From assembly GCA_964428195.1 (NCBI GenBank), contig CAYRXC010000001.1, forward strand, positions 1 through 62,754: a DNA stretch of 62,754 bases, written 5' to 3'. Source of the stretch: an uncultured Muribaculaceae bacterium (lineage in GTDB: Bacteria > Bacillota_I > Bacilli_A > RF39 > UBA660). Each line of letters starts with the position of its first letter. Positions within the stretch are counted from its first letter, which is position 1. Shown here piece by piece: positions 15,113-33,551 of the stretch. Both the position numbers and the translations under genes were made by a program. The notes under the pieces are model-generated. The model was not told the origin of the DNA and did no database searches. It saw nothing but the letters and a program-made list of their open reading frames with translations.

Positions 15113-15148
15113 TTCACAAAAAAAATCTATTTATTAATAATAGATTTT
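15113..15148. terminator. bidirectional hairpin terminator downstream of the pilin-like genes
   Basis: AAATCTATT-TATTAAT-AATAGATTT, flanked by an A-run and a T-run. Confidence 0.6.
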
Positions 15149-16005
15149 TAATTAACAATTATCGTTCTTTTTACCGTATCGGCTTTGTTTCCAAAAATAT
15201 CAGAAACATCGTAATATTTGTAATAGGTTCCTTTGATATTTGTATTCACCGATCCACTTATTGTAATCCGAGAACTTATATTTCCGTCTTCAATATCGGT
15301 TGCAGTTGCATTATATTCAACATAAGTGCTTCCTACAGTAAGATTTATTGTTGAACCTCCTATAAGTGTTATAACTGGTTTGTTATTGTCTGAAGAAGTA
15401 CTTACATCTTCAACAATTACTTTTCTAATAACTGAATCTGCTTGTGGATATGTATATGTAACGTTATAAGTATCAGGTACAGAAGTATCAATCTCATCTG
15501 CTCCAAAATAGTTTGTTTCATGCAAATCTATAATAGTGTTTTCTGCAGGGTTAATTACTATTGCTCCATACTCAAAATATTCTCCATTTGTCCTTATTTT
15601 AATTTCTAAGGGTCCTTTCAATACTATTATTGGATTATTTTTTTGTTCTATATCAAACAAGGTATAAACCTCATTGTCAATCAAATAAATAATTACACTA
15701 TCGTAATAATTTACCGTAGTTTTCCCGTTAATTCTTAAATCCTTTTCTTTAATAAATCCTTTATTAATTAAAGCTTGAACATCTATAATTACTATATTAT
15801 CTGTTTCTATTGAAGGAATTTCATTTTTATAATTTAAATAATACATTTCAGCTGATTCTTCTATTAGTCTAATTTGAGAATCTGATGCATATTGCTTTAC
15901 AAAAAACAAATCATCATCAAATAACGATACTAATATTGTTGCTAATATTCCTAAAAGAATTACTATTGTTAAGACTTCGATAAGCGTAAATCCTTTTTTG
16001 TTCAT
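15148..16005 (-). CDS. type IV pilin-like (prepilin N-terminal methylation motif) protein with two Ig-like DUF5011-type domains
   Basis: N-terminus MNKKGFTLIEVLTIVILLGILATI (G/FTLIE class III signal, Glu+5). C-terminus has two repeats of the Y.E.GA..D..DG...G.V.T...G.Y...Y...D..GN.A...R.I.V pattern. Confidence 0.75.
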   Translation of the reverse strand: MNKKGFTLIEVLTIVILLGILATILVSLFDDDLFFVKQYASDSQIRLIEESAEMYYLNYKNEIPSIETDNIVIIDVQALINKGFIKEKDLRINGKTTVNYYDSVIIYLIDNEVYTLFDIEQKNNPIIVLKGPLEIKIRTNGEYFEYGAIVINPAENTIIDLHETNYFGADEIDTSVPDTYNVTYTYPQADSVIRKVIVEDVSTSSDNNKPVITLIGGSTINLTVGSTYVEYNATATDIEDGNISSRITISGSVNTNIKGTYYKYYDVSDIFGNKADTVKRTIIVN

Positions 16006-16020
16006 TATTCCTCCTCAATA

Positions 16021-16617
16021 TTATAAATCATCAGTTACAATAACATTTCTAGTTATGATGTTCGAGTCATTATAATAATATTCTAAAACATAAACCCCTT
16101 CTGTTGTTGTATCAACAACTCCTGAAGTTGCTTTCACATCTGGATTTGTCGTGGTCCCATCGAAACCAATAGCTCCTGGATCGTTGTAAGTTGTGTTTAA
16201 TTTAACTTTCTCATTATAAAAGCCTTTTAATGTGATTTTAGATTTTGTACTTTGATTGATATCATAAGATACTTTAATTTTGTTGTTATAATCCATTGTA
16301 ACATAAACAACATCATCTAAAAATATGGTTTCATCGGTACTTGGATTTTTAATGTTTTCTTCAATATAATTTGAATCTATAAGTGTTTTAATGGTAATAT
16401 TCATAAATCCATACTTGTTAAGTTCATCCAAATTTCTTAAATTATCAGTTACGTACTTGTGTGCAGATAATTCAATGTTTTTTATTTGCGTTTCCGTTGT
16501 TTTTTCTCGAGTTTCTTTTATTCTATTACTCAATAAAGGAACCGTAATAGTGATCAATAACATTATTATAATCATTACTGCTAATAATTCAATTAAAGTA
16601 AAACCATTTTTTTTCAT
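16021..16617 (-). CDS. type IV pilin-like protein with one Ig-like DUF5011-type domain
   Basis: N-terminus MKKNGFTLIELLAVMIIIMLLITI. C-terminus YNDPGAIGFDG...SGVVDTTTEGVYVLEYYY...RNVIV. Starts 24 nt after the ParB-family gene stop, with RBS AGAGGAG. Confidence 0.75.
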   Translation of the reverse strand: MKKNGFTLIELLAVMIIIMLLITITVPLLSNRIKETREKTTETQIKNIELSAHKYVTDNLRNLDELNKYGFMNITIKTLIDSNYIEENIKNPSTDETIFLDDVVYVTMDYNNKIKVSYDINQSTKSKITLKGFYNEKVKLNTTYNDPGAIGFDGTTTNPDVKATSGVVDTTTEGVYVLEYYYNDSNIITRNVIVTDDL

Positions 16618-16641: not shown

Positions 16642-18135
16642 TTATTTATCTATTTTTATTATTATTTGGTATAATCTTTCAAAATCAAATTCTTCAAAAT
16701 CTATTTTTATTCCGCTACTTTTTATGCCTTCAACTACTTTTTTTATCATGTTTTTTGAATTTTCAATATCTTGGTCATCTTCTCTTTTCGGCTCTTTTAA
16801 GTCCACAATAAACCTATTTTGTTGTTGTTTCTCTTCTTTTACACTTTCAATATTCTGAGATTGTGAGTTATTATTAATATTATTCGGTGTTTCTATTGAT
16901 TTATTACTTTCAACTTGATTACTGCCCCAAATTTGATCAACACTGAAACTTCTTTGGCTTAATTCGTTTTCCATTTGTAAGTTTACTTGAAGGTTTTCCT
17001 TTGGTTGAAAAGAAGTTTCTGGCACTAAATAATTGTCTTTTATGTCGGTCTTTGGAATTACATAAGGACTTGATTTTATATTATTAGTATCTCTAAAAAG
17101 TAATTCATCAAATGGAGAATTTACATTGCTAATTTTTTCAATCAAATCTTTTTGAGGATTATACTCTTTATTATTATGTGGTTCTGCTTGCATATTTTTA
17201 TTTTCCATTTCACTCCCTTTTTGAGGTTCTGAATCAACTATTATAAATGGCTTTGGTGCTATAATTTGTTGTTCTTTATTTTCAACTATATTATCTAAAC
17301 TAAAATTCATAATATCATTTTCATTATTCGATTTTTGTTCTACAAATACTTGTTCTTGCATAACGGATTCTTCTTGTTTTGATTCTTCTTCAATTTTTTC
17401 ATCTTGCTGAGTAATGTTTTCCTGAATAGTATGAATTGGAGAAATTTCCTGAAAGTTTTCATCTATTAATTCGTCTTCTTTTACTTTATTATCGTTTTTT
17501 TGTTCAATCGCTTCTTCTTCTTTGTTTTCTCCATACTTTTCTTTAATTATATCGTCAGTTTCCTTTACTGTTAATTTTTTTGATATTATTTCTTCTAATA
17601 GTTTTTTTTGCTCTTCTACATCTTTTATAACCAATAAACTTCTTGCATGTCTTTCGGAAATTTTTTCTTTAATTAGAGCTTCTTTTACTTCTTCTCCTAA
17701 AGATAATAATCTTAATTTATTTGCGATGTATGGTTGACTTTTTCCCAATCTTAATCCCAATTGTTCTTGAGTAATACCTCTTTCTAACAATTTCTTATAT
17801 GCTTGAGCTTCCTCAAACGATGTCATATCTTTTCTGTGAAGATTTTCAACTATTGCAACTTCTGCACTTTTATTATCATCAAAATCAACAATGATTGCAG
17901 GAACTTTTACTAATCCAATCAATTGTGATGCCTTATACCTTCTTTCACCCGCAATAATTTCATATTTATCACCTAATTTTCTCAAAACTAATGGTTGAAT
18001 TATTCCATGTTGTTTTATAGATTCAGCTAATTCCATCAAAGCTTTTTGATCAAAATTTAATCGAGGTTGAAACCTGTTTGGAATAATTTCGTCCAAAAAG
18101 ATATCTTTAATTTCTTTTTCAAAATTGTCACTCAT
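16642..18135 (-). CDS. noc: ParB/Spo0J/Noc-family DNA-binding protein, Noc-like, with a long low-complexity insertion
   Basis: IPNRFQPR, GERRYKA, HTH GKSQPYIANKLRLL and ISERHARSLL motifs. The C-terminal end resembles Noc. 497 aa against about 280 aa for typical family members. Confidence 0.8.
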   Translation of the reverse strand: MSDNFEKEIKDIFLDEIIPNRFQPRLNFDQKALMELAESIKQHGIIQPLVLRKLGDKYEIIAGERRYKASQLIGLVKVPAIIVDFDDNKSAEVAIVENLHRKDMTSFEEAQAYKKLLERGITQEQLGLRLGKSQPYIANKLRLLSLGEEVKEALIKEKISERHARSLLVIKDVEEQKKLLEEIISKKLTVKETDDIIKEKYGENKEEEAIEQKNDNKVKEDELIDENFQEISPIHTIQENITQQDEKIEEESKQEESVMQEQVFVEQKSNNENDIMNFSLDNIVENKEQQIIAPKPFIIVDSEPQKGSEMENKNMQAEPHNNKEYNPQKDLIEKISNVNSPFDELLFRDTNNIKSSPYVIPKTDIKDNYLVPETSFQPKENLQVNLQMENELSQRSFSVDQIWGSNQVESNKSIETPNNINNNSQSQNIESVKEEKQQQNRFIVDLKEPKREDDQDIENSKNMIKKVVEGIKSSGIKIDFEEFDFERLYQIIIKIDK

Positions 18136-18203: not shown

Positions 18204-18905
18204 TTATAAGGGCTTTTTTTTAATAATATTGTAATTTCTAGGAAATTGTGTGTTTATCTTTTTATTTTTTTTAATAACTAAAAGAGTTCTTTTCATATTA
18301 TCGATAGGTAAAACAAACCTTATTATTTTTTCTAAGGAAGAATCTAACAATTTTAAAAAATTTAGATTTAATAATTCTTCTTCAACTTCTGCTTTCATTG
18401 GAATAAAATAACCTTTTATTTTTACCAAGGGCAAACATATTTCAGAAATAATGTTTAGTTTTGCTAAAGCCCTACAAGTTACTAAATCATATTTTTCTCT
18501 ATTATTTTTACAAAATATTTCTACTCTATCATTAATTATTATTACATTAGTTAGATTTAATTCTGCTTTTACCATTTTTAAAAAATCTATTTTTTTATTA
18601 TTTGATTCTACTAATGTTACCATTAAGTTTGGAAAAAAAAGACTTAACACTATCCCCGGAAAACCAGCACCAGTTCCTACATCACAAATTGTTTTTGTTA
18701 TATTTAAATCTATTGCTTTTATTAAAGTTAAACTATCATAGAAATGTTTCAAATATACATCTTCTAAAGCGGTTATAGATGTAATATTTGTATGCTTGTT
18801 ATATTCAACAATCATTTCATAGTATTTATCTAGTTTATCAATTAATTTTTGGTCAATATTTATATTTAATTCTTCAACAAAATTAACAAATTCATCTTTA
18901 TTCAT
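18204..18905 (-). CDS. rsmG: 16S rRNA (guanine527-N7)-methyltransferase
   Basis: GidB family with DVGTGAGFPG SAM motif. Directly downstream of mnmG. Confidence 0.92.
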   Translation of the reverse strand: MNKDEFVNFVEELNINIDQKLIDKLDKYYEMIVEYNKHTNITSITALEDVYLKHFYDSLTLIKAIDLNITKTICDVGTGAGFPGIVLSLFFPNLMVTLVESNNKKIDFLKMVKAELNLTNVIIINDRVEIFCKNNREKYDLVTCRALAKLNIISEICLPLVKIKGYFIPMKAEVEEELLNLNFLKLLDSSLEKIIRFVLPIDNMKRTLLVIKKNKKINTQFPRNYNIIKKKPL

Positions 18906-20712
18906 CTTTAAAATACCTTTTCATATATACAAGTAATATCGAAATATCTGATAAATTAACCCCACTTATTCTACTTGCTTGTCCAATAGATTCTGGTCTA
19001 ATCAATTTAAGTTTTTGCTTTGCTTCTGTAGCAATATTAGTTATCTTGTCATAATCAATATCTTTTGGAATTTTTTTATATTCAAGTTTTAACATATTTT
19101 CGGCATTTTTTATTGTCTTTTTTATATATCCTTCGTATTTAATGGATATTTCTAATTGTTCTAACTCCTCTTTTGAATAGTGTTTATTAAATATATGTGA
19201 TATCTCATTTACTCTATTTTCAGGATGTTTTAAAAAATTATAAATTGTTTCTCCATTATTTACTTTTATTTCTTTTGATAAAGCTAATAATTCCTCAATA
19301 TTGTTTTTCTTTAATATAAACCTATCATATACATCATAGTTAACTAATCCAATATTTTTTCCATATTCAGTCAATCTTAAGTCAGCATTATCGTGTCTTA
19401 ATAATAATCTAAATTCTGCCCTTGAGGTAAGCAATCTATATGGTTCACTCGTTCCTTTTGTGATTAAGTCATCGATTAATACTCCAATATATGCTTCATT
19501 TCTCTTTAATATTAATGCATCTTTATTTTTTAACTTTAATGATGCATTAATTCCAGCCATTAACCCTTGACATGCTGCTTCTTCATATCCACTTGTTCCA
19601 TTTATTTGTCCGGCAGTGAATAAATTTTCGATGATTTTTGTTTCTAATGTTGCTTTTAATTGTGTAGGATTAATTGCATCATATTCTATTGCATAAGCAT
19701 ATTTTTTTATAACTGCATTTTCCAGTCCAGGAAGGCTGTGAACTAATTTATCTTGAATTTCCTTTGGCATACTAGTCGAGAATCCTTGTAAATATATATC
19801 ATCATAAAATAAACTTTCAGGTTCTAAAAATATTTGATGAGTATCTTTATCTTGAAATCGCATTATCTTATCTTCAAAAGAAGGACAATATCTTGGCCCA
19901 ACTCCTAATTTTTCTTCTATTGCTCCATACATACTTGATTTATTAATATTTTCTAATACTATTTTTTTTGTTTCTAAGGTTGTATGTACTAAATGACAAA
20001 GCATTTGATTATTTACATTGTAATAAACCTTGTTATCAAAACTAAATGTATATTCTTCCTCTGATCCTAATTCTAATTTGGTTTTGGAAAAGTCTATAGA
20101 AGATTTTTCTATTCTCTGAGGAGTACCCGTTTTTAATCTTGTAATTTCAAAACCATATTTTTTTAAATTATCACTTAGATATAATGATGGTTTTTGTTCC
20201 ATTGGTCCCATTCTTGTTCTAGAATTTCCAACCAATATATCACTCTTCATATATGTTCCTGTAGTTAATATCACTATATTTGAAAATAATTTTTTCCCAT
20301 TTTCTAAAACAATACCTTTTATTGTATTGTTTTCAATTAGCAAATCTTCAACCATATTTTCTAATAGATATAAATTTTTTTGAGATTTTAATGTTTTTAA
20401 CATTTCTTTTGGGTATGTAATTTTATCTGCTTGACATCTTAAACTTCTTACTGCAGGTCCTTTGCCAGTATTTAACATTTTCATTTGAATTAATGTTTTA
20501 TCTGCACATTTTCCCATTTCACCACCAAGTGCATCTATTTCTCTAACAACTATTCCTTTTGCACTTCCTCCGATTGAAGGATTACATGGCATTTGAGCAA
20601 CAATATTGAAATTTGATGTAATTAGCAAAGTTTTATGATTTAATCTTGCAGTAGCTAATGCAGCTTCACAACCTGCATGTCCGCCACCAACTACAATAAT
20701 TTCATAATCCAT
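18898..20712 (-). CDS. mnmG: tRNA uridine 5-carboxymethylaminomethyl modification enzyme MnmG (GidA)
   Basis: FAD motif VVGGGHAGCEAA. About 604 aa. Start placed at the ATG at 20712 after AAAGGTG; the track start at 20721 is GTG. Confidence 0.95.
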   Translation of the reverse strand: MDYEIIVVGGGHAGCEAALATARLNHKTLLITSNFNIVAQMPCNPSIGGSAKGIVVREIDALGGEMGKCADKTLIQMKMLNTGKGPAVRSLRCQADKITYPKEMLKTLKSQKNLYLLENMVEDLLIENNTIKGIVLENGKKLFSNIVILTTGTYMKSDILVGNSRTRMGPMEQKPSLYLSDNLKKYGFEITRLKTGTPQRIEKSSIDFSKTKLELGSEEEYTFSFDNKVYYNVNNQMLCHLVHTTLETKKIVLENINKSSMYGAIEEKLGVGPRYCPSFEDKIMRFQDKDTHQIFLEPESLFYDDIYLQGFSTSMPKEIQDKLVHSLPGLENAVIKKYAYAIEYDAINPTQLKATLETKIIENLFTAGQINGTSGYEEAACQGLMAGINASLKLKNKDALILKRNEAYIGVLIDDLITKGTSEPYRLLTSRAEFRLLLRHDNADLRLTEYGKNIGLVNYDVYDRFILKKNNIEELLALSKEIKVNNGETIYNFLKHPENRVNEISHIFNKHYSKEELEQLEISIKYEGYIKKTIKNAENMLKLEYKKIPKDIDYDKITNIATEAKQKLKLIRPESIGQASRISGVNLSDISILLVYMKRYFKDE

Positions 20713-20737
20713 ATTAATCACCTTTATTTCGATATTT

Positions 20738-21856
20738 TTAAAAAGTTTTTATTGGAACAATTAATTGAACTAAATTGTCCTCTTCTGTTGATTTAATAAT
20801 TATGGGTTTAATTTCTCCACTTAGTAATAGTTTTGTTTTTTCTCCTTTTATTGTTCTTAGAGCTTCCATCATATATTTTGAAGAATAAGAAATTTCTAAT
20901 TTAGAATTTTTATCAATATCTCCAAATATTCTTTCCTCTATTTTTCCAATTTCTTGAGAAATAGAACTTATAATAATTTCTTTATTATTTATATTCATCT
21001 TTATTACATTTTTATCTTTTTCAGATGTCAATAATGATGCTCTATCAATTGCATTAAAAAATTCATCAGTATTAACAGTTATAGTAAATGTAGGTTCAAT
21101 TTTTATTAGTTTTGTTGTATCAGGATAAGTTCCATTTAGTAATCTAGATTGAAATAATATATTATCGAATTTAAACAATATACTATTAGAGAATAAGTGA
21201 ATTTCTATTTTATCACTTTCATCATCTATTATTTTCGATAATTCTATTAAATTTCTTCCTGGAACAACAATATTAATTTCTTCTTCTATTTTTTCTTCTA
21301 TTCCTATTGATTTTTTCGATAATCTATATGAATCGGTTGCAACACATTCCATTACTTTGTCATTAATTTTAAAATTAATACCTGTTAGAATAGGTCTCGA
21401 TTCTTGAGAAGAAATGGCAAAAGATGTCTGAAAAATGATGTTTTTTAATAATTTTTTATCAATTTTGATTGGTTTTTCTACTAAATCTAAGTTTTTATCT
21501 GGGAAATCATCTGGGTTCATTCCATTTAAATTATACTCCCCGTTTTTCGAAATAATAGTAAAGTTTAATCCATCAGTAATAATTTCAATTATTTCATCAG
21601 GAATCTTTCTTATTATTTCTATTAAATATCTTCCAATTATTACTATATTTCCATTATCATTAATTTTATCAATATATTTTTTATCTATAAAAGATCTTAT
21701 TGTTATCTCATTATCACTGCATGTTAAATATAACCCTTCTTTATTCATTTCCAATTTAATTCCACTAAGTATTGGAATAATGTTTTTAGTTGATAAAGCT
21801 TTTGATACATTATTTAAGTTTTCTAATAATATTTCCTTTTTAATTATAAAATTCAT
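20738..21856 (-). CDS. dnaN: DNA polymerase III beta sliding clamp
   Basis: 372 aa. MNFIIKKEILLENLNNVSKAL and three-domain clamp architecture. Immediately downstream of dnaA. Confidence 0.95.
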   Translation of the reverse strand: MNFIIKKEILLENLNNVSKALSTKNIIPILSGIKLEMNKEGLYLTCSDNEITIRSFIDKKYIDKINDNGNIVIIGRYLIEIIRKIPDEIIEIITDGLNFTIISKNGEYNLNGMNPDDFPDKNLDLVEKPIKIDKKLLKNIIFQTSFAISSQESRPILTGINFKINDKVMECVATDSYRLSKKSIGIEEKIEEEINIVVPGRNLIELSKIIDDESDKIEIHLFSNSILFKFDNILFQSRLLNGTYPDTTKLIKIEPTFTITVNTDEFFNAIDRASLLTSEKDKNVIKMNINNKEIIISSISQEIGKIEERIFGDIDKNSKLEISYSSKYMMEALRTIKGEKTKLLLSGEIKPIIIKSTEEDNLVQLIVPIKTF

Positions 21857-21962
21857 TTTATATCCTTTCTTTTTTCTTATTATTTTTATTATTACGGTTG
21901 AAATTGTTAATAACTTAATATTTCTTTATTAATTAAGAAGTTTTTATTAACAATACATTAAC
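21857..21962. other. dnaA-dnaN intergenic region, likely the second oriC module (AT-rich unwinding side)
   Basis: 106 bp of almost pure A/T between dnaA and dnaN, the position of the DUE-containing module in Bacillus-type bipartite origins. Contains degenerate boxes TTATTAACA on both strands. Confidence 0.5.
21897..21913 (+). repeat. 17-nt motif GTTGAAATTGTTAATAA, copy 1
   Basis: Identical 17-mer also at 23517..23533. The reverse complement contains TTATTAACA (7/9 to a DnaA box). Confidence 0.8.
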
Positions 21963-23312
21963 TTATTTTAACTTACTTTTTAATAAATCAATAGTTTTTT
22001 TAAATTCTTTATTATTTTTTAATTCATTTTCAATTTTTGTACAAGCATGAATTATAGTAGTGTGATCTTTTCCTCCAAATTCAATTCCAATTCTTGGAAA
22101 GCTTTCATCAGTAAGGACTCTTGATAGATACATAGCTACTTGTCTAGGAAAGGTTATTTTACTATTTCTTTTTTTAGAATTCATGTCTTCAACAGATATT
22201 TGATAAAAATCTGATACAGTTTTTTGTATTTTTTGGATACTATTTTTCATAAATGCTGTTGAATTTAAATAATCACTTAATGCTTCTTTAGCTACTTCTA
22301 TTTCTATTTTTTCTTTATTAAACATTGCTGTATATGCAAATAATCTATTTAAAGCTCCTTCTAATTTTCTTACATCATTTGTGCAGTTATTTGCAATAAA
22401 TATAAGAACATCTTCAGAAATAGGTTTTGCAATCTCATGTGCACTTAATTTTTTCTTTAATATTTCAATTCTTAATTCATAATCTGGAGGTAATATACTT
22501 GTAGTTAATCCCCAATTAAATCTAGTTCTTAATCTCTCTTCTAATAATTTTAAATCATCTGGTGATCTATCTGAAGATATAATAATTTGTTTACCCTCTT
22601 GATGTAATTCATTAAATGTATGAAAAAACTCAGTTTGACTTTCTGTTGCACCAGCAAGAAATTGAATATCATCTATAATTAGAACATCAATATTTCTATA
22701 CTTATTTTTAAATGTTTCTACATTTTCTATATTGTTTTCTTCACTTTTTCTTTTATTAATTGAAACAAAATCAGATTTAAATTTATCACTAGTCACATAT
22801 AATACTTTTTTGTTCGTTGTTTCAACTACATAATTTCCAATTGCTTGCATTAAATGTGTTTTTCCTAGTCCACTACTTCCATATATAAATAAAGGATTAT
22901 AAGCTTTTCCAGGTCTTTCTGCAACAGCAAAAGCAGCTGTAAATGCAAGTCTATTAGTTTCTCCTTTTACAAAAGAATCAAATGTATAATTAGGATTTAA
23001 ATTTGCTTGAATAGGATTATTATAAGGTATACCTTCCTCATTTTTTATTATTTTACTGTCACTTGTTTCTTCTTCGAGCAAAAATTCAAAATCAAAATTA
23101 GTACCTGTTATAGAGTTCATTGTTTCTTTTATTAAATCATAATATGTCTCAGATAAGTTTTTTTTATGAAGATTCATTGGAACTATTATGAACATTTTTT
23201 TATTCTCAACTTTATGAAGTTTTGTTTCACTAAACCAGGCATCAAAAGCAATGGGAACCAATTTTTCTTTCATCATTTCTAGAAAACTTATCCACAAATT
23301 ATTTTCATCCAT
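21963..23312 (-). CDS. dnaA: chromosomal replication initiator protein DnaA
   Basis: AAA+ Walker A GSSGLGKTHL. C-terminal HTH with the DHTTIIHA signature. RBS AGAGGAGG. Confidence 0.97.
   Translation of the reverse strand: MDENNLWISFLEMMKEKLVPIAFDAWFSETKLHKVENKKMFIIVPMNLHKKNLSETYYDLIKETMNSITGTNFDFEFLLEEETSDSKIIKNEEGIPYNNPIQANLNPNYTFDSFVKGETNRLAFTAAFAVAERPGKAYNPLFIYGSSGLGKTHLMQAIGNYVVETTNKKVLYVTSDKFKSDFVSINKRKSEENNIENVETFKNKYRNIDVLIIDDIQFLAGATESQTEFFHTFNELHQEGKQIIISSDRSPDDLKLLEERLRTRFNWGLTTSILPPDYELRIEILKKKLSAHEIAKPISEDVLIFIANNCTNDVRKLEGALNRLFAYTAMFNKEKIEIEVAKEALSDYLNSTAFMKNSIQKIQKTVSDFYQISVEDMNSKKRNSKITFPRQVAMYLSRVLTDESFPRIGIEFGGKDHTTIIHACTKIENELKNNKEFKKTIDLLKSKLK
23288..23296 (+). promoter_or_regulatory. 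DnaA box (perfect TTATCCACA) inside the first codons of dnaA
   Basis: Exact 9-mer match. Confidence 0.7.
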
Positions 23313-23424
23313 AAATTGATACCTCCTCTAATATTTTGTGCTTTATTGATATTGTAAATCATTTTTCATAAAATATAAACAAGTAAATAATAAATAACAA
23401 GTTAATAACAATTAATTCACAGGT

Positions 23425-23433
23425 TTATTCACA
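23425..23433 (+). promoter_or_regulatory. DnaA box TTATTCACA (TTATNCACA class)
   Basis: 8/9 match to TTATCCACA. Confidence 0.65.
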
Positions 23434-23466
23434 AGGTAATATATTATATTTAAAGAAATAATTCAG

Positions 23467-23475
23467 TTATCCACA
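23467..23475 (+). promoter_or_regulatory. DnaA box (perfect TTATCCACA)
   Basis: Exact 9-mer match. Confidence 0.8.
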
Positions 23476-23516
23476 AAATCTATAATTTAATATTATAAAA
23501 TTAATTCGATATTATT

Positions 23517-23533
23517 GTTGAAATTGTTAATAA
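23517..23533 (+). repeat. 17-nt motif GTTGAAATTGTTAATAA, copy 2
   Basis: Identical to 21897..21913. Lies 9 nt upstream of the rpmH -35 hexamer. Confidence 0.8.
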
Positions 23534-23541
23534 GATTTTAA

Positions 23542-23570
23542 TTGACTTTTAATGGGGTAGCACTTATAAT
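23542..23570 (+). promoter_or_regulatory. sigma-A promoter of rpmH
   Basis: TTGACT, 17 nt spacer, TATAAT. Confidence 0.7.
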
Positions 23571-23599
23571 TATAGTGATTTATTTACAGGAGGAATAAT

Positions 23600-23728
23600 A
23601 TGAAAAGACCTTTTCAACCAAACAAAGCAAAAAGAAAAAAAACTCATGGTTTTTTTGCAAGAAAAGAAGCTAATACAGGAATCGTAACTGCAAGAAGAAA
23701 AAAACAAAGAAAGATATTGACAAAATAA
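23600..23728 (+). CDS. rpmH: 50S ribosomal protein L34
   Basis: Not in the ORF track (42 aa). MKRPFQPNKAKRKKTHGFFARKEANTGIVTARRKKQRKILTK, preceded by AGGAGGA. Confidence 0.93.
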   Translation: MKRPFQPNKAKRKKTHGFFARKEANTGIVTARRKKQRKILTK

Positions 23729-23769
23729 AACACCAATAGTGTTTTTTTGTTATGAAGCGGAATAATTAA

Positions 23770-24090
23770 ATGAAAAAAATAAATATAATAAAATTTAATA
23801 GAGACTTCGATAACATAATAAAAAATGGAAAATATATTAAATCTGAATTATTTAATATATATTATATTGATAGTAATAGCAAATATAATAAGTATGGAAT
23901 TTCTGTTCCAAAGAAGATTGGGAATGCAGTTATAAGAAACAAAATAAAAAGACAAATTAAAAACATTATTGATAATAGAATTGAAATTAAAAACAAAAAA
24001 GATGTAATAATAATAATTAAAAACAGAATTTTAGATTACAAATATGGAGAAATAGAAAATAAATTAGTAGAAACAATTAAGAAAATATAG
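23770..24090 (+). CDS. rnpA: ribonuclease P protein component
   Basis: 106-aa basic protein directly after rpmH, with a KKIGNAVIRNKIKRQIK (RNR-like) motif. Confidence 0.88.
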   Translation: MKKINIIKFNRDFDNIIKNGKYIKSELFNIYYIDSNSKYNKYGISVPKKIGNAVIRNKIKRQIKNIIDNRIEIKNKKDVIIIIKNRILDYKYGEIENKLVETIKKI

Positions 24091-24098
24091 AGGTAAGT

Positions 24099-25118
24099 AT
24101 GTATAAAAAACTTGTTATGATCGTATTATTTTTGTTAATATTTTCAGGATGTTCAAAAACTTTAGTTGATAAAGATAAGAAACCAGTTAAGTACGAGGCT
24201 TCTTTAATATGTGAAAATTGCGAAAAAATATGTAATAAAAATGAACAAAAAGAGAAGTGTATAGAAGATTGTGAGAATAAATGCCAATTAGCTAAGAAAA
24301 ATGAGACTGGGCAATCGTTAACAGAAAACATATTATGTAAGCCTACTAATCCAGATGTACTCGAAATATATAAAAATAACGAAGTTAATTTGGATAATCT
24401 AGTTGAATGCAAAGATTTTGAATTAAAAAACAGTAAATATGAAGGCTTATGGGATAGCTTATTTGTAAAACCGTTGGCATGGTTGATTTTGAAACTCGGT
24501 AATATAATAAATAACTATGGTCTTTCTTTGATATTTATAAGTTTAATAATTAGAATAATTTTGTTACCTGTAACAAAGAATACAGCATTACAATCCGAAA
24601 ATATGAAAAAAGCTCAACCGGAGATTAAAAAAATAGAAAAAAAATATGAGGGAAAAACTGATCAAGATTCATTAATGAAAAAAAGTCAAGAAACAATGCT
24701 ACTATATAAAAAATATAACATTAATCCTATGTCGAGTTGCTTATTTGCACTGATTCAAATTCCTTTATTATTTGCATTCATAGAAGCAATAAATAGAACT
24801 CCAGCAATTTTTGAAGGAAGTTTATTAGGATTCAAATTAGGAATGACTCCGCTGATTGCTCTTCAAAAAGGAGAAATATGGTATATAATTATTGTTATAT
24901 TGTTAGCAGTTATTACATATTTATCTTTTAAGTTAAATAAGGGAGCACCTACAGGATTAGACAATCAAAAACAAATGAATATAATGAATACAGTCTTTGT
25001 TGTAATGATTATATTTATGTCGTTCTCAATGGCTACAGCAATAAGTTTATATTGGATATCATCAAATGTATTTACCATTATTCAAAATTTAGCTGTTAAA
25101 AGGAGAGAAGAAAAATGA
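24099..25118 (+). CDS. yidC: membrane protein insertase YidC/SpoIIIJ family, lipoprotein, with Cys-rich N-terminal extension
   Basis: Lipobox LLIFSGC. Conserved YidC core (ISLIIRIILLPV..., PLLFAF..., LYWISSNVFTIIQ). About 339 aa. Confidence 0.92.
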   Translation: MYKKLVMIVLFLLIFSGCSKTLVDKDKKPVKYEASLICENCEKICNKNEQKEKCIEDCENKCQLAKKNETGQSLTENILCKPTNPDVLEIYKNNEVNLDNLVECKDFELKNSKYEGLWDSLFVKPLAWLILKLGNIINNYGLSLIFISLIIRIILLPVTKNTALQSENMKKAQPEIKKIEKKYEGKTDQDSLMKKSQETMLLYKKYNINPMSSCLFALIQIPLLFAFIEAINRTPAIFEGSLLGFKLGMTPLIALQKGEIWYIIIVILLAVITYLSFKLNKGAPTGLDNQKQMNIMNTVFVVMIIFMSFSMATAISLYWISSNVFTIIQNLAVKRREEK

Positions 25119-25729
25119 TAAAAGTTTATGATTTTATTGAAAAAAGTAGTGAAGTAGCAAAAGAAAAAATGTTATACGAACTTGGTGTATCTGAAAAAGA
25201 AATTTATTATAAAGAGACAGAAGAGACCAGCGGAGGGTTATTCAAATCAAAAAAAATTAAAATCGAAGCATTAAAAAAAGAAGAAATCATAGAATATGCA
25301 AAAGAAACTTTAAACAAAATTTTTGAAAAAATGGGAATTGAAGTTAAAATAGAAGCTAAAAAAAGAGATGAAGTTATAAAAATTAATTTATTTTCAAACA
25401 ATAACTCGATATTAATTGGAAAAAATGGAAAAACAATCGATTCCTTGCAAACAATTTTAAAAAGTTCTATTTATAATAAAACAAATTTTAAAATAAATAT
25501 TCTAATAGACGTAGAGGATTATAGAGAAAAACAACAAAGAAATATTGAGAGAACAATTAAAAATATGGCATTTGAAGTTAAGAAAACCGGAATTCCAATT
25601 TCTTTAGATCCTATGAATTCTTATGAAAGAAGAAATGTTCACAGTATATGTAGTAGTGTAGCGGGTGTTACAACTGAATCTGTTGGCGAAGAGCCTGATA
25701 GATATATTATAATAAAAAGAAAAGAATAG
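25115..25729 (+). CDS. jag: Jag/KhpB RNA-binding protein (Jag_N, KH, R3H)
   Basis: KH-like GKNGKTIDSLQ and R3H (SYERRNVHS). Downstream of yidC. Confidence 0.9.
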   Translation: MIKVYDFIEKSSEVAKEKMLYELGVSEKEIYYKETEETSGGLFKSKKIKIEALKKEEIIEYAKETLNKIFEKMGIEVKIEAKKRDEVIKINLFSNNNSILIGKNGKTIDSLQTILKSSIYNKTNFKINILIDVEDYREKQQRNIERTIKNMAFEVKKTGIPISLDPMNSYERRNVHSICSSVAGVTTESVGEEPDRYIIIKRKE

Positions 25730-25751
25730 AGTGTATATACTCTATTTTTTT
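25727..25751 (+). terminator. Rho-independent terminator after jag
   Basis: Stem TAGAGT/ACTCTA with a 6-nt loop, followed by TTTTTTT. Confidence 0.6.
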
Positions 25752-25775
25752 GTTATAATCTTATTGGGTGATATT

Positions 25776-27122
25776 ATGTATGATACAATTGTGGGAATTT
25801 CAACAGCTTTAGGTATCGGTGCTATTTCAATTATTAGAGTAAGTGGTAATGAAGCATTAAAAATAGTTAATACTATTTTTTCTAAAAATATAGATAAAGT
25901 AGAAACACATACAATTAATTATGGGTACATTCAGGAAGAAAAAGAAATAATTGATGAGGTATTAATTGGAGTTATGAAAGCTCCAAAAACATTTACAAGA
26001 GAAGATGTTGTAGAAATTTACTGTCATGGCGGAATATCAACAACGAATAAAATAGTACAATTACTAATTCAAAAAGGTGCAAGGCTCGCTGAACCCGGAG
26101 AATTTACTAAAAGAGCATATTTAAATGGAAGAATCGATTTAGTAGAAGCAGAAGCGGTGATGGATTTAATTAACTCTAAAACCGAAAGTTCAAGAAAATT
26201 AGCGTTGAATGGTATTAGTGGCAAAATATCTAATATGATTGAAGAATTAAGAATAGAAATATCAAAGATATTGGCAAATATTGAAGCAAACATCGATTAT
26301 CCCGAATACGAGGATATACTTATTATTACAAAAGATATGATAAGAAAAGAAATATCAATAATTGAAGATAAAATCAAAAAGATATTAGAAGAATCAAAAA
26401 ACTCAAATATAATTAAAAATGGAATAAATACTTTAATTTTAGGGAAACCAAACGTGGGCAAAAGCAGCATATTAAATTCTTTATTAGGTGAAGAAAAAGC
26501 AATTGTTACAAATATTCCTGGGACAACAAGGGATATTGTCGAAGGAGCAATTTCTATTGAATCTGTATTGTTTAATATTACTGATACTGCCGGAATTAGA
26601 GAAACTGATAATATCATAGAGATGATAGGTGTAGAAAAATCTTTAAAACTGATTGAAGACTCTGAATTAATAATTTTGGTTTTAAATAATAACGAGGAAT
26701 TAGGACAAGAAGATCTAAAACTTCTTGATTTAACAAAAAACAAAAAAAGAATATTAGTAATTAATAAAATTGATTTAGAAAGTAAAATTAATAAAGATAA
26801 TTTTAATGAGGATGTTGTAGAAATAAGTGCTTTAAACAATAACTTGGAGAAGTTAAAAGAAAAAATGAAGGAAATTTTCGATTTGGAAAAAATTTCCAGC
26901 AAAGATCCAAATTATTTATTTAATAATAGACAAATAAGTATTTTAAATAAGACAATGGATACAGTTACCGATTTAAAAAAAGGTTTAGAAGAAGAATTAC
27001 CAATAGACATAATTGAGATTGATTTGAAACAAATTTGGGATTTACTTGGAGAAATTATTGGCAGAAATAACTCGAATGATTTGGTCGACGAGATATTTAA
27101 GAATTTTTGTTTAGGAAAATAA
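25776..27122 (+). CDS. mnmE: tRNA modification GTPase MnmE
   Basis: Start trimmed to MYDTIVGISTA. G1 motif GKPNVGKSS. C-terminal FCLGK. Confidence 0.95.
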   Translation: MYDTIVGISTALGIGAISIIRVSGNEALKIVNTIFSKNIDKVETHTINYGYIQEEKEIIDEVLIGVMKAPKTFTREDVVEIYCHGGISTTNKIVQLLIQKGARLAEPGEFTKRAYLNGRIDLVEAEAVMDLINSKTESSRKLALNGISGKISNMIEELRIEISKILANIEANIDYPEYEDILIITKDMIRKEISIIEDKIKKILEESKNSNIIKNGINTLILGKPNVGKSSILNSLLGEEKAIVTNIPGTTRDIVEGAISIESVLFNITDTAGIRETDNIIEMIGVEKSLKLIEDSELIILVLNNNEELGQEDLKLLDLTKNKKRILVINKIDLESKINKDNFNEDVVEISALNNNLEKLKEKMKEIFDLEKISSKDPNYLFNNRQISILNKTMDTVTDLKKGLEEELPIDIIEIDLKQIWDLLGEIIGRNNSNDLVDEIFKNFCLGK

Positions 27123-27123
27123 C

Positions 27124-28221
27124 ATGAAAATTAAAGAATTAGAAATATTTAATTTTAGAAATTATGACAAGTTAATGTTGTCTTTTTCTGATCAAATTAA
27201 TATTTTATATGGAAAAAACGCTATAGGAAAAACAAATATTTTGGAAAGTATATATCTTGTTGCTATTACTAAATCACATCGAAATAATGATGACAAAACG
27301 CTGATAAAGAACGACAAAACTATTTCTAAAGTAAAGGGACTAGTGATTTCAAATAACAAAGAAAATAAAATGGAGATAGTATTAAGCAATAGAGGCAAAA
27401 GTGTAAAAATAAACAATAATGTTATTAAAAAAATTAGTGATTACATTTCTGTATTCAAGGTAATAATTTTTTTTCCTGATGATTTAGAATTAATAAAAGG
27501 GAGTCCCTTGGTTAGAAGAAGATTCATGAATATAGAAATTGGACAGATAGAAAATAAATATATTAGAGTTTTAAATGAATATAACTTATTACTAAAAAAC
27601 AGGAACGAATATATTAGAAATAAAGAGTTAAATAATATCGATGAAAAATATTTAGCAACTGTAAACGAGCAATTATCGAAACTTGGATCAACCATTATTA
27701 TTTATAGAAAAGACTTTATTGAAAAATTATCCGAAAAAACAAATAAAATATATAAAAAAATATTTGGAGTTGGAGAAATTAAAATAGAATATAAGACAAA
27801 TATTGATTTAAAATCTCCAAATTTAGAAAACGAATATTTAGAAAGAATTAATAGCAACTTAAAAAGAGACTTATATTTAAAAACCACGTGCATAGGCCCG
27901 CATAGGGATGATATTTTATTTATGTTAAATAATAATGACTCTAGAGATCAAGCTTCTCAGGGTCAACAAAGAACAATAATAATTAGCGCTAAATTAGCAG
28001 AGGCAGAACTCATTAAAGAAAGAACTAATGAATATCCCGTGTTGTTGTTGGATGATATTTTCAGTGAGCTTGATTTAGAAAAGAATAATAATCTAATTAA
28101 ATCCATCGATAGAAACATACAGACATTCATTACTACAACTGATTTGGTTCGAATTAACCAAAAGATTTTAAAAAATGCAAAACTTTTTGATATTGAAAAT
28201 CTTGAAAAAAACAAAAAATGA
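27124..28221 (+). CDS. recF: DNA replication/repair protein RecF
   Basis: Walker A GKNAIGKTN and signature SQGQQRT. Starts 1 nt after the mnmE stop. Confidence 0.93.
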   Translation: MKIKELEIFNFRNYDKLMLSFSDQINILYGKNAIGKTNILESIYLVAITKSHRNNDDKTLIKNDKTISKVKGLVISNNKENKMEIVLSNRGKSVKINNNVIKKISDYISVFKVIIFFPDDLELIKGSPLVRRRFMNIEIGQIENKYIRVLNEYNLLLKNRNEYIRNKELNNIDEKYLATVNEQLSKLGSTIIIYRKDFIEKLSEKTNKIYKKIFGVGEIKIEYKTNIDLKSPNLENEYLERINSNLKRDLYLKTTCIGPHRDDILFMLNNNDSRDQASQGQQRTIIISAKLAEAELIKERTNEYPVLLLDDIFSELDLEKNNNLIKSIDRNIQTFITTTDLVRINQKILKNAKLFDIENLEKNKK

Positions 28222-30271: not shown

Positions 30272-32701
30272 GTGGAAGAAAACATAGTAGATAAAATAGA
30301 AGATATCAATTTATCTTCAGAAATAAAAAACTCTTTTCTTGATTACTCAATGAGTGTAATTGTTTCAAGAGCAATACCGGATGTTAGAGATGGTTTGAAA
30401 CCGGTACATAGAAGAATATTATATACAATGTATGAAGAAGGAATGACACCGGACAAAAAACATCAAAAAAGTGCAAATGCAGTCGGAGCAGTTATGGGGC
30501 ACTATCACCCTCATGGAGACTCTGCAATTTATGACAGTATGGCAAGAATGGCACAAGATTTTACGTACAGACACACGTTAGTAGATGGACATGGTAATTT
30601 TGGATCTGGAGATGGTGATAGTCCTGCTGCTTCAAGATATACAGAAGCTAGATTATCTAAGATTTCTATGGAATTATTAAGAGATATAAACAAAAATACA
30701 GTAGATTTTACTGATAATTATGATGGCCAAAGAAAAGAACCTTCTATATTACCGTCACGTTTTCCTAATATTCTCGTAAACGGAAATATGGGAATTGCAG
30801 TTGGAATGGCAACAAATATTCCTCCTCATAATTTAGGAGAAGTAATAGACGGTTGTATAGCGTTTATCGATAATAAAGAAATATCTGTTCTTGAGTTAAT
30901 GCAGTTTATCAAAGGACCAGATTTCCCGACATATGGATATATTTTGGGAAACAGTGGAATAAAGAAAGCATATGAAACAGGAAAAGGATCGATAGTTTTA
31001 AGAGGAAAAGCAAGGATTATTGAAGAAGAAAACAAGAAAAGTAGAATAATTATAACGGAAGTTCCTTATCAAGTAAGTAAGACAAACGATTTAACAAAAA
31101 AAATCGGAGAATTAATAAGAAATAAACAAATAGATGGAATAAGTGATCTTCAAGACGAATCTACTCTTGAAGGAATAAAACTTACAATTGAAATAAAGAA
31201 AGAAGCTAATGCTAATGTTGTTTTAAATAACTTATATAAACACACGCCGCTTCAAGTAAATTACGGAATAAATTTGCTAATGTTGGTCGATGGAAGACCA
31301 AAAACCTTGGGATTAAAGGATATATTGAATTATTACGTAGAATATCAAAAATCAATAATAATTCGAAGAACAAAGTTTGATTTAGATAAATCAAAAGCAA
31401 GGGAACACATATTAGAAGGACTCAAAATTGCATTAGACAACATTGATGAAATTGTTAAAATATTAAAGAATGCAAAAGATGACTCTAAAGCAAAAGAAGA
31501 ATTAAAAGAAAAATTCAATTTATCTGATTTACAATCAGAAGCAATTTTAGAAATGAAATTAAGAAGACTAACGGGTCTTGAAAGAGGAAAAATTGAAGAA
31601 GAGCTCGCAGCTATCCTTTTGCTAATTAAAGAATTAGAAGAAATCTTGGCAGATTCAAATAAAGTACTTGAAATAATAAAAAAGGAACTATTAGAAATTA
31701 AAGAAAAATATGCTAATGAAAGAAGAACACAAATAGATTTATCTTCTATTGAAAACATAGAAGACGAAGAACTTATACCACAAGAAGAAATTATAGTAAC
31801 ATTAACTAACAAAGGATATATAAAGAGACTTCCTTTGGACACCTATAAGACGCAAAATAGGGGCGGCGTAGGAATAAAAGGAATGACAACAAATGAAGAA
31901 GATTTCGTAGAAAACTTATTGATGCTAAACACTCATGATTATTTATTGCTGTTCTCTGACAAAGGGTTGATATATAGAATAAAAGGTTATGAGGTGCCTG
32001 AGTATAGTAGACAATCAAAAGGATTGCCAATTGTAAACTTATTGCCTCTTGAGAAAGATGAAATTATCACTTCTGTTTTAAAAATTAATCAAATTGAAGA
32101 AAACAGATGTTTGCTATTTGCAACCGAAAAAGGGTTGGTGAAAAGATGTAGCATTGATGATTTTAACAGCATAAGAAAAACGGGCAAGATAGCCATTAAA
32201 TTAAAAGAAAACGATAAATTAATTGCCGTTCTTAAGACTAACGGAGAGTCTGAAATAACAATGGCATCATCTAACGGTAAAATGGTTAGATTCAACGAAA
32301 AAGAAATAAGAATAATGGGAAGAAATGCTTCGGGAGTAAAGGGAATAAACGTTGGAAACGACTCCATTTGTATTGGGGCTAGTGTTGCTGATAATGATAA
32401 GGAAGTTCTTGTAGTAAGTGAAAAAGGATATGGAAAAAGAACTAAATTAGAAAACTATAGAGTTACTAAAAGAGGCAGCAAGGGGGTCAAAACTATTAAT
32501 TCTACAGCTAAGACAGGAAAAATGATCTCGTTTAAAATGGTTAGTGACGAAGAAGACTTAATGATTGTTACTGACTTTGGAATGTTAATTAGGATACCTA
32601 TTTCTCAAATATCATCAATGAGCAGGGTAACACAAGGGGTTAGATTGATTAATTTAAAAGACAACCAAAAAGTATCTTCAGTATTTAACGTAATGGAGTA
32701 A
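30272..32701 (+). CDS. gyrA: DNA gyrase subunit A
   Basis: [22 protein letters not shown] and active-site [13 protein letters not shown] start after AAGGAGGA. Confidence 0.97.
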
Positions 32702-32718
32702 AAAAGGATAATTAGGAT

Positions 32719-32734
32719 TATTTCCCGAGAAAAA
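32719..32734. promoter_or_regulatory. degenerate Noc-binding-site-like sequence (14/16)
   Basis: TATTTCCCGAGAAAAA compared with the NBS TATTTCCCGGGAAATA. Confidence 0.4.
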
Positions 32735-32735
32735 T

Positions 32736-32751
32736 TATTTCCCGGGAAATA
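32736..32751. promoter_or_regulatory. perfect Noc-binding site (NBS) palindrome
   Basis: TATTTCCCGGGAAATA contains the 14-bp NBS consensus ATTTCCCGGGAAAT exactly. Confidence 0.7.
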
Positions 32752-32760
32752 TATAAGCAT

Positions 32761-32945
32761 CGATGTTCCACGTGAAACATACAAGCTAGTAACAAAGAAT
32801 CGATGTTCCACGTGAAACATACAAGCTAGTAACAGAGTGTCAATGTTCCACGTGAAACATACAAGCTAGTAACAGAGTGTCAATGTTCCACGTGAAACAT
32901 ACAAACTAGTAACAAAGTATCGATGTTCCACGTGAAACATATATC
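32761..32945. repeat. 40-bp tandem repeat array carrying five identical parS sites
   Basis: TGTTCCACGTGAAACA at 32764, 32804, 32844, 32884 and 32924 (16/16 to B. subtilis parS). Four full 40-bp units plus a 25-bp partial unit. Spacers are near-identical. Confidence 0.9.
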
Positions 32946-32983
32946 ATAAAAATTTATTAAATATAGGTGAAATATATAAATGG

Positions 32984-33012
32984 TTGCATCATTATAAGAG
33001 TTGATATATAAT
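32984..33012 (+). promoter_or_regulatory. sigma-A promoter of the SRP RNA gene
   Basis: TTGCAT, 17 nt spacer, TATAAT. The RNA 5' end is predicted 7 nt downstream. Confidence 0.65.
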
Positions 33013-33018
33013 TAATAA

Positions 33019-33091
33019 GACGTAACAAGCCGTTAATAAAATAGGTCAGGATCGAAAGATAGCAGCCATATTAAGCGGGCTTGTGTACGTC
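33019..33091 (+). ncRNA. ffs: small (4.5S-type) signal recognition particle RNA
   Basis: Long hairpin GACGTAACAAGCC.../...GGGCTTGTGTACGTC. Conserved domain IV GGTCAGG-ATC-GAAA-GAT-AGCAGCC. A T-run (ATTTTTT) follows. Lies in the tadA-dnaX neighbourhood, near where scr sits in Bacillus. Confidence 0.85.
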
Positions 33092-33116
33092 ATTTTTTAA
33101 TTTTAAGGGGAGATAT

Positions 33117-33551
33117 ATGAAAAAATATATGAGGGCGGCTCTAGATGAAGCGAAAAAAGCTTTTGACAAAAACGAAATGCCAATTGGAGCAGTTGTTGTA
33201 TGCAATGGTAAGATAATATCTAGGGGACACAACACTAAAGAAATTGATAATAATCCGATTGGACATGCGGAAATTAATGCAATAGTAAAAGCCTGTAAGA
33301 AAAGAAATGATTGGAGGCTAAATGATTGTTTGCTATTTGTAAACGTAGAGCCGTGTTTAATGTGTTATGGTCTAATATATGAAACGAGAATAAGAAAAAT
33401 ATATTGTTCACTAAAAAACAATAAATTTAATGATCTAGTTAGTAAATTTGCTTCATCAGATAACTGCGTTATTGAATATGGATTGCTTGAAAACGAATCT
33501 AAGCAATTATTGAAAGATTTTTTTGAAAAACTAAGAAATTGTAAAGGATAA
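33117..33551 (+). CDS. tadA: tRNA-specific adenosine deaminase
   Basis: HAE and PCLMC zinc motifs. Start trimmed to MKKYMRAAL after AAGGGGAG. The longer track ORF would overlap ffs. Confidence 0.9.
   Translation: MKKYMRAALDEAKKAFDKNEMPIGAVVVCNGKIISRGHNTKEIDNNPIGHAEINAIVKACKKRNDWRLNDCLLFVNVEPCLMCYGLIYETRIRKIYCSLKNNKFNDLVSKFASSDNCVIEYGLLENESKQLLKDFFEKLRNCKG

Follow-up and report, generated by a model that had tools for sequence, protein, structure and literature searches.

Interleaved parS and Noc-binding sites near the replication origin of uncultured gut Bacilli suggest a shared platform for two ParB-family paralogues

ParB with parS and Noc with the Noc-binding site (NBS) are the textbook case in which, after duplication of a DNA-binding protein, both the target sequence and the job changed, and the two sets of sites have been described as spatially and functionally separate. 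The stretch of DNA analysed here, called the window, is the complete 62,754-bp contig CAYRXC010000001.1 (28% GC) of a metagenome-assembled genome (MAG); it spans the replication origin and holds a perfect NBS beside five parS sites between gyrA and ffs. The question raised by this locus is which proteins would read the two kinds of site and why these stand together. An earlier note on the sequence had proposed an origin-proximal platform with the sites of two paralogues juxtaposed, and had named three options, in which one protein reads both sites, two clamps compete, or one hands over to the other. Site conservation and synteny, given below, support such a platform, and we consider it probable that the locus is a conserved origin-proximal centromere that would load two ParB-family paralogues.

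The NBS-like sites begin 17 bp past the stop of the gyrA open reading frame (ORF) at 32701. On re-reading, the coordinates and sequences that had been given for the NBS, the five parS and the gyrA stop were right in every case, and an Rfam match confirmed ffs after the array. The features of the interval are as follows.

30272-32701, plus strand: gyrA (Pfam), the upstream boundary of the conserved site-bearing interval.
32719-32734, no strand assigned: degenerate NBS-like site TATTTCCCGAGAAAAA, with one half-site intact and two mismatches in its 14-bp core.
32736-32751, no strand assigned: perfect 16-bp NBS palindrome TATTTCCCGGGAAATA (exact match).
32755-32941, no strand assigned: head-to-tail array of 40-bp units with one parS per unit (Tandem Repeats Finder).
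32764-32779, no strand assigned: parS 1, TGTTCCACGTGAAACA, starting 28 bp after the start of the NBS.
32804-32819, no strand assigned: parS 2, TGTTCCACGTGAAACA.
32844-32859, no strand assigned: parS 3, TGTTCCACGTGAAACA, also in the independent contigs L010-L016 and L018.
32884-32899, no strand assigned: parS 4, TGTTCCACGTGAAACA, also in independent contigs.
32924-32939, no strand assigned: parS 5, TGTTCCACGTGAAACA, also in independent contigs.
33010-33105, plus strand: ffs, the small signal recognition particle (SRP) RNA (Rfam RF00169, 50.1 bits).
33117-33551, plus strand: tadA (Pfam), the exact protein being present in 14 contigs.

The 16-mer at 32736-32751 matches the NBS palindrome ATTTCCCGGGAAAT exactly and contains the sole CCCGGG of the 62.7 kb. 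Tandem Repeats Finder reported a 17-bp duplication with 1.9 copies at 32717-32749 that spans both NBS-like sites, the degenerate one being its first copy; for the parS array, the program gave a period of 40, 4.7 copies, 93% matches and a score of 311. The five parS copies are all identical, each an exact match to the consensus TGTTNCACGTGAAACA. Shuffles of the window gave an expectation of 0.07 parS (up to two mismatches) against 10 strand-matches, or five sites, seen, and none of 100 shuffles matched the 16-bp NBS with up to one mismatch. Chance does not explain the site cluster. No further parS (up to one mismatch) or NBS (up to two mismatches) was found elsewhere in the window.

The nearest relatives, L273 and L275, were fetched by TadA homology alone. 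In L273, whose GyrA is 88% identical to that of the window, gyrA is followed by a perfect NBS with an extra half-site, four parS in 47-bp units, ffs and tadA, and this composite cluster shares a 78,306-bp contig with the Noc-like homologue P0002. In L275 (GCA_964543375.1; GyrA 83% identical), the arrangement parS-28-NBS-34-parS precedes ffs and parS-28-NBS-35-parS follows it. No other parS or NBS was found in about 20 kb of L273 or L275, and the spacers of both are unrelated to those of the window. The 16-mer TATTTCCCGGGAAATA stands directly after gyrA in L273, L275 and a further relative, L054; ffs lies inside the site cluster at the equivalent position in all 10 relatives scanned, and tadA has further parS and NBS sites on both flanks in relatives. 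In all three of the closest lineages, both site types are preserved exactly at this locus, whereas the spacers, periods and copy numbers are not, which is the mark of selection on the sites with rapid turnover of the arrays. The earlier note had reasoned that relatives lacking both motifs at this position would point to a recent neutral duplication; both motifs are present in these two relatives and in 117 syntenic metagenome loci, and repeat copy number varies across related gyrA-ffs regions.

These metagenome loci came from a scan that required a perfect 14-bp NBS at a distance of 0-30 bp from parS and returned at least 120 loci; the counts that follow refer to the 120 listed. Synteny with the window (the gyrA-ffs-tadA-dnaX interval) was seen in 117, all from low-GC Bacilli (GC 0.21-0.31), which form about 100-109 clusters at 90-95% nucleotide identity, that is, species-level lineages; across the 120, GyrA is 50-68% identical to that of the window. 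A locus has a median of three parS and two NBS and a maximum of nine and 11, and the two types often alternate strictly. In L240, eight units of about 60 bp hold one parS and one NBS each, and L260 has composite units of 106 bp (5.5 copies) and 104 bp (2.5 copies), parS and NBS having been amplified together as single repeat units in both.

Within the 766 kb of these loci, 322 NBS (up to one mismatch) lie in 100 kb of cluster zones and five in the other 665 kb, a density about 430-fold higher than in the flanks, and about 200 extra NBS remain after subtraction of the one per locus imposed by the search. For parS, the counts are 426 inside the zones and none outside. [quoted passage not shown] Furthermore, 285 of about 330 NBS are the full 16-mer, though the search fixed only 14 bases, and parS/NBS hybrids are essentially absent, implying two discrete readers. 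Start-to-start distances between parS and NBS, counted once per lineage over the range of 15-45 bp that the search sampled uniformly, fall into two peaks, at 26 and 36 bp, separated by a trough at 29-31 bp, and almost none are below 22 bp; the distance in the window is 28 bp. The peaks correspond to half-integer helical turns, which suggests that neighbouring sites are built for simultaneous occupancy.

In many relatives (L145, L147, L152, L172, L184, L190, L212, L225, L244, L245 and L247), an extra NBS was observed about 1.7-1.9 kb from the main cluster, downstream of dnaX, and sites occupy each intergenic gap of the gyrA-ffs-tadA-dnaX-ybaB stretch in these relatives.

The most serious alternative, which we regard as unlikely, is that the sites coincide without being coupled. 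The parS array would be the centromere and the NBS an ordinary site of a Noc-like protein; in a genome so gene-dense and AT-rich, both would gather in the few intergenic regions close to the origin, with no functional interplay between them. The single full NBS of the window would fit this, as would those clade members that carry parS arrays here without any NBS. However, the contrast in NBS density between cluster zones and flanks, the amplification of parS and NBS as single repeat units and the bimodal, helically phased spacing with its trough at integral turns all argue for coupling, and every homologue of the presumed NBS reader lacks the membrane helix, which removes the canonical reason for an NBS.

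It is improbable, in our judgement, that the NBS-bound Noc-type protein mainly confines or shapes the sliding of ParB, acting as a boundary or roadblock, an insulator and not a co-equal partner, for example to protect transcription of gyrA, ffs or tadA. In favour of such a role, the window and L273 both have their NBS on the gyrA side of the parS array, at its edge, and studies of ParB with cytidine triphosphate (CTP; e.g. PMC7053999) have established that DNA-bound proteins obstruct ParB-family sliding clamps. In many lineages (among them L240, L260, L155 and L215), however, the NBS do not flank the array, and the two types alternate all through it, an arrangement that would obstruct the spreading of ParB and not bound it.

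The presumed reader of the NBS is encoded 14.6 kb from the site cluster and is the only ParB-family protein in the window.

16642-18135, minus strand: Noc-type ParB-family protein of 497 amino acids, the presumed NBS reader (Pfam, structure alignment and AlphaFold2).

It has the domains PF02195 ParB_N and PF17762 helix-turn-helix (HTH), each at 1e-31, and a GERR box (GERRYKA). Its best NCBIfam model is TIGR04285 nucleoid_noc, at 273.2 bits, below the curated cut-off of 315, and its best solved relatives are Noc structures (7NG0, 7NFU and 7OL9; about 200 bits), ahead of Bacillus subtilis ParB (165 bits). The gene lies directly downstream of rsmG (gidB), as do those of its homologues, which come from MAGs named 'Bacilli bacterium' and from gut metagenomes. 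Jalal et al. (PMC7383237) assigned the specificity residues RTAG to ParB and QKKR to Noc; in their deep mutational scanning, parS-specific variants always had R173, Q173 with R201 recognised NBS given K at position 179 or 184, and most variants of dual specificity carried T or S at position 201. In an alignment to structures of Noc and ParB, the 497-residue protein has Q173, K179, S184 and R201, and because this set matches those rules, it is predicted to read NBS and not parS. All 123 homologues retrieved have Q173, K179 and R201, with position 184 variable. The earlier note had made its platform depend on a ParB-family protein of this organism that binds these sequences, and a candidate with NBS-type specificity residues is thus present on the same contig.

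These rules bear equally on the option in which the organism has no ParB-family protein but this one, which would bind parS as well as NBS. No other ParB-family gene lies in the roughly 75 kb around the origin, no soj-spo0J follows the gene of this protein in the window or in the neighbourhoods of three relatives, and position 184 is non-canonical as well as variable. The family, however, is invariantly Q173/R201, whereas R173 is invariable in parS-specific variants and dual-specificity variants mostly have T or S at 201 (PMC7383237); in addition, the two site classes are sharply distinct, with no intermediates. With Q173, K179 and R201 where R173 would be required, a single reader becomes the least likely of the three options, and we think it still more improbable than a boundary role.

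The protein starts about 21 residues later than B. subtilis Noc (its residue 3 aligns to Noc residue 24), the gap to the rsmG stop is only 68 bp, and its first 10-mers have a net charge of -1 to -3. The late start and the short gap indicate that the amphipathic membrane-targeting helix of Noc is absent. All 123 homologues likewise lack about 22 N-terminal residues including this helix, their PNRFQPR box starting at residue 14-22. Since the N-terminal amphipathic helix is needed for nucleoid occlusion and draws DNA to the membrane (PMC4331003, PMC8429893), the 497-residue protein is probably not a canonical nucleoid-occlusion factor. AlphaFold2 modelled confident domains at residues 7-203 (ParB_N/HTH) and 455-497 (C-terminal, dimerisation-like), joined by a linker of about 250 amino acids (204-454) that is predicted to be disordered, its predicted local distance difference test (pLDDT) score being below 50 for the most part. 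The homologues share a linker of variable length and a C-terminal EEFDFE..YQIIIK motif. Inside the linker, an island at residues 320-352 (window 17082-17177; pLDDT 67-75) has two predicted helices, NPQKDLIEKISNV...DELLFRD, and the close homologues P0002-P0016 also keep the motifs PKPF, EPHxN..NPQ..LI.K(L/I)SN and SPYV.P..DI; the island and these motifs may be docking motifs for a partner.

A neutral or artefactual repeat, namely a recent slippage duplication or assembly error without function, is already disfavoured and to us scarcely credible, for although units 2 and 3 are identical and the copy number is beyond the resolution of short-read assemblies, the array is present in nine independent samples, and relatives with 50-88% GyrA identity hold other units and periods but the exact sites at the same locus. 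Nine short-read assemblies from those samples start within the array (32805/32845 or 32875), their sequence being identical to that of the window, and a break there is expected of a true tandem repeat in a de Bruijn graph, which argues that the array is real. The independent contigs cover the right-hand two to three units, and the count of five rests on one contig. No record of the exact GyrA product was found in two look-ups that sought to confirm the left junction (gyrA-NBS). All short-read (Logan) contigs of the species (L009-L018; window 32805-32875) end in the array, and short-read MAGs therefore probably contain too few composite centromere arrays of this kind, or contain them in collapsed form, so that copy numbers in databases need caution.

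The spacer of the 40-bp unit is absent elsewhere in the window and, among the fetched loci, occurs only in contigs of the same species; the unit is thus not a member of a dispersed repeat family, which would have told against the platform as the earlier note had proposed it. Four other identities were considered and rejected: a CRISPR-like array, the spacers being near-identical; a dispersed REP-type element, the spacer being confined to locus and species; an intrinsic gyrA terminator, none having been detected between the gyrA stop and ffs (32702-33009); and a plasmid or phage origin, the housekeeping synteny being conserved. As no terminator was detected after gyrA, its transcription may run through the NBS and the parS array. 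Units 2 and 3 (window 32816-32883, minus strand) share the spacer variant AGAGTGTCAA, which gives two sigma-70-like matches, TTGACA-16-TATGTT, with 10 of 12 bases and directed toward gyrA; these are matches to a consensus only.

Tandemly iterated centromeres had been taken in the earlier note to be typical of plasmids, but tight tandem parS arrays are not confined to these. When one genome of each species was scanned for triplets of parS with gaps of 10-40 bp, at least 120 loci were returned, which places tight tandem arrays on the chromosomes of at least 120 species from many phyla; a tandem parS array alone is thus an ordinary form of chromosomal centromere. Among the matches listed, carriers include Collinsella, Lachnospiraceae, Streptococcus, Acidobacteriota, Flavobacterium, Streptomyces and Parcubacteria, most periods fall at 35-55 bp, regularly spaced sites number up to 8-10 (L042, L056), and most arrays adjoin rsmG, mnmG or parB near the origin. 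In the literature searched, no discussion of tight parS spacing (50 bp or less) was found, though it is common in unannotated genomes. Among L021-L138 (e.g. L021, L025 and L116), dozens of Collinsella species have three parS at exactly 39-bp spacing between rsmG and a parB-family gene, and similar triplets stand beside mnmG in Flavobacterium, Mucilaginibacter and Massilia and beside rsmG in Acidobacteriota. Close-set triplets of this kind (period 35-55 bp) seem to be a widespread form of centromere.

Six loci of this parS scan (L030, L033, L054, L056, L115 and L118) come from low-GC Bacilli with GyrA 60-64% identical to that of the window. Their arrays lie between gyrA, tadA and dnaX as in the window, with unrelated periods and spacers. 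L054 has the perfect NBS 16-mer right after gyrA and L118 a degenerate NBS; in this sample of more distant clade members, drawn on parS only, one of six with a perfect and one of six with a degenerate NBS suggest that the composite form is frequent and not universal. In L030, three parS lie inside the dnaX ORF (7874-7979), in its variable C-terminal part, where they encode the repeated peptides NVSRGT, DVPRET and NVPRET, being centromere sites within a coding sequence.

ParB and Noc close into CTP-dependent clamps at their own sites and then slide off (PMC7053999, PMC8429893). For a platform that loads both paralogues, we envisage that the five consensus parS would nucleate a canonical ParB, encoded outside the 62.7-kb contig, which would close into CTP-dependent sliding clamps and spread across the gyrA-ffs-tadA-dnaX region, the iteration of the sites multiplying its loading rate. 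The adjacent NBS would nucleate the rsmG-adjacent Noc-type paralogue of 497 amino acids, which in this lineage appears to have lost the membrane helix and gained a long disordered linker. It would then be a second component of the origin or centromere complex, to which it would bring its linker and C-terminal domain, and from the interleaved sites both types of clamp would enter the same stretch of a few kilobases. With the known mode of membrane binding unavailable and the sites concentrated, a role at the centromere or origin seems likelier than nucleoid occlusion.

Several points weigh against this reading. The parS reader of the cluster is assumed to be a canonical ParB, because parS is perfectly conserved, and no canonical ParB, ParA/Soj or SMC was found in the window (Pfam, essentially all ORFs of at least 100 amino acids) or in about 13 kb past the contig ends (FtsH and UDG look-ups), where the right flank held only rpsL-rpsG-fusA and the left flank was short; none was found in any related locus fetched. 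A tblastn search of the 120 listed metagenome loci with the ParB-family domain and B. subtilis Soj likewise gave no matches. Four of the six clade members from the parS scan have no NBS (up to two mismatches) in 8 kb, two of these four loci ending inside the array. The 120 loci were chosen on an NBS beside parS, which inflates the counts inside the zones by one site of each type per locus, and the counts cover partial genomes, so that NBS might also be dispersed elsewhere. The lineages are related, and the spacing histogram, not being made of independent events, is suggestive and does not amount to a formal test. No member of the family has Lys at position 184, and the specificity of the family could differ subtly from that of tested Noc. 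Finally, the sites, their conservation, co-clustering and spacing pattern and the features of the protein were observed directly, and from them we infer binding, clamp loading, co-occupancy and biological role.

Despite these points, we maintain that a platform for two paralogues is the probable reading. We put forward more tentatively, as somewhat less than an even chance, that in these uncultured low-GC gut Bacilli a helix-less Noc serves as a second centromere clamp, with its sites interleaved with parS in helical phase at one locus and a linker that could recruit partners. The helix-less state could be a derived re-purposing of Noc, or it could be a surviving intermediate between ParB and Noc, in which DNA specificity switched before membrane binding and site dispersal. 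In the literature searched, the coverage of which is incomplete, clustered parS and dispersed NBS were found, and no description of interleaved parS and NBS or of a helix-less Noc. What sets the locus apart is the clade-wide pairing of NBS with parS and a remodelled Noc; the tandem parS array is ordinary.

The array resembles sopC, the iterated centromere of the F plasmid, which consists of twelve 43-bp repeats. Both are head-to-tail repeats of about 40 bp with one 16-bp palindromic ParB-family site each. The locus of the window is, in contrast, chromosomal and set among housekeeping genes (recF-gyrB-gyrA ... ffs-tadA-dnaX), has the chromosomal parS consensus and a second site type, and has no partition operon or partition genes nearby, so that it is not a plasmid centromere with its own parAB.

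With the parS/Spo0J system of B. subtilis, the locus shares the identical 16-bp consensus, the origin-proximal position and presumably the loading of ParB-CTP clamps and then SMC. B. subtilis, however, has about ten single parS sites over hundreds of kilobases (PMC4536313, PMC7614844), whereas the window has five in a 40-bp array in one intergenic region, beside an NBS and with no parAB nearby. The NBS is the same 16-bp palindrome as in B. subtilis and Staphylococcus aureus, and the reader resembles Noc in its best hits, rsmG-adjacent synteny, C-terminal domain and Q173/K179/R201. Canonical NBS, from 41 to about 70 of them, are scattered across the half to two-thirds of the chromosome nearest the origin (PMC5540599, PMC7383237), whereas the sites here are clustered with parS and their reader lacks the helix and has a disordered linker of about 250 amino acids inserted. 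Several parS near oriC also occur in Myxococcus xanthus, Corynebacterium glutamicum, Pseudomonas aeruginosa and Caulobacter (PMC3899335, PMC7083940, PMC4368675, PMC5815017), but those clusters span kilobases and contain parS only. S. aureus, itself of the Bacilli, has ParB and Noc without ParA and a noc without soj-spo0J behind it, and its Noc controls replication initiation (PMC5540599); it differs in that its Noc retains the membrane helix and its sites are dispersed.

The cluster lies 9.4 kb from dnaA and is thus origin-proximal. The GC skew switches at about 23.4 kb, close to three DnaA boxes (23288-23475).

21963-23312, minus strand: dnaA.
23313-23769, no strand assigned: probable oriC, in the dnaA-rpmH/rnpA intergenic region (GC-skew sign change and nearby DnaA boxes).

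The minus strand carries, in this order, the noc-like gene, rsmG, mnmG, dnaN and dnaA, followed by oriC, past which the plus strand carries rnpA, yidC, jag, mnmE, recF, gyrB and gyrA, then the sites, ffs, tadA, dnaX, ybaB, recR and holB. The origin region (18204-28221) is rearranged relative to the usual order in Bacilli, as if the blocks flanking oriC had been swapped: dnaA-dnaN stand on the minus strand with mnmG-rsmG-noc, and rnpA-yidC-jag-mnmE and recF-gyrB-gyrA on the plus strand. This order is common to L139, L191, L273 and L275, and the more distant L155, L182, L202 and L218 have the canonical yidC followed by dnaA-dnaN-recF-gyrB-gyrA. Directly downstream of the Noc-type gene, at 15148-16617, are two N-terminally methylated pseudopilin-like genes with a bacterial immunoglobulin-like surface domain; the pair is also present in the close relatives L139 and L140, and a related gene lies between dnaN and mnmG in L141. 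The promoter that had been proposed for ffs, TTGCAT-17-TATAAT (32984-33012), fared less well than the gene itself: it is visible by eye, but a consensus scan did not list it, because its -35 matches only three of six bases, and the Rfam match (33010) starts inside the proposed -10 (33007-33012), so that either the promoter or the start of ffs is misplaced by several bases.

In contrast to the textbook separation of parS and NBS, the two sets of sites are interleaved at one locus in at least about 100 lineages, with a Noc partner that lacks the feature by which its mechanism is defined. If both proteins load here, these bacteria would provide a natural system for studying how two kinds of CTP-gated clamp share one DNA track, what Noc does without a membrane anchor and in which order the properties of Noc evolved. 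The composite cluster is, in addition, a practical marker of the origin region in MAGs of a poorly known gut clade.

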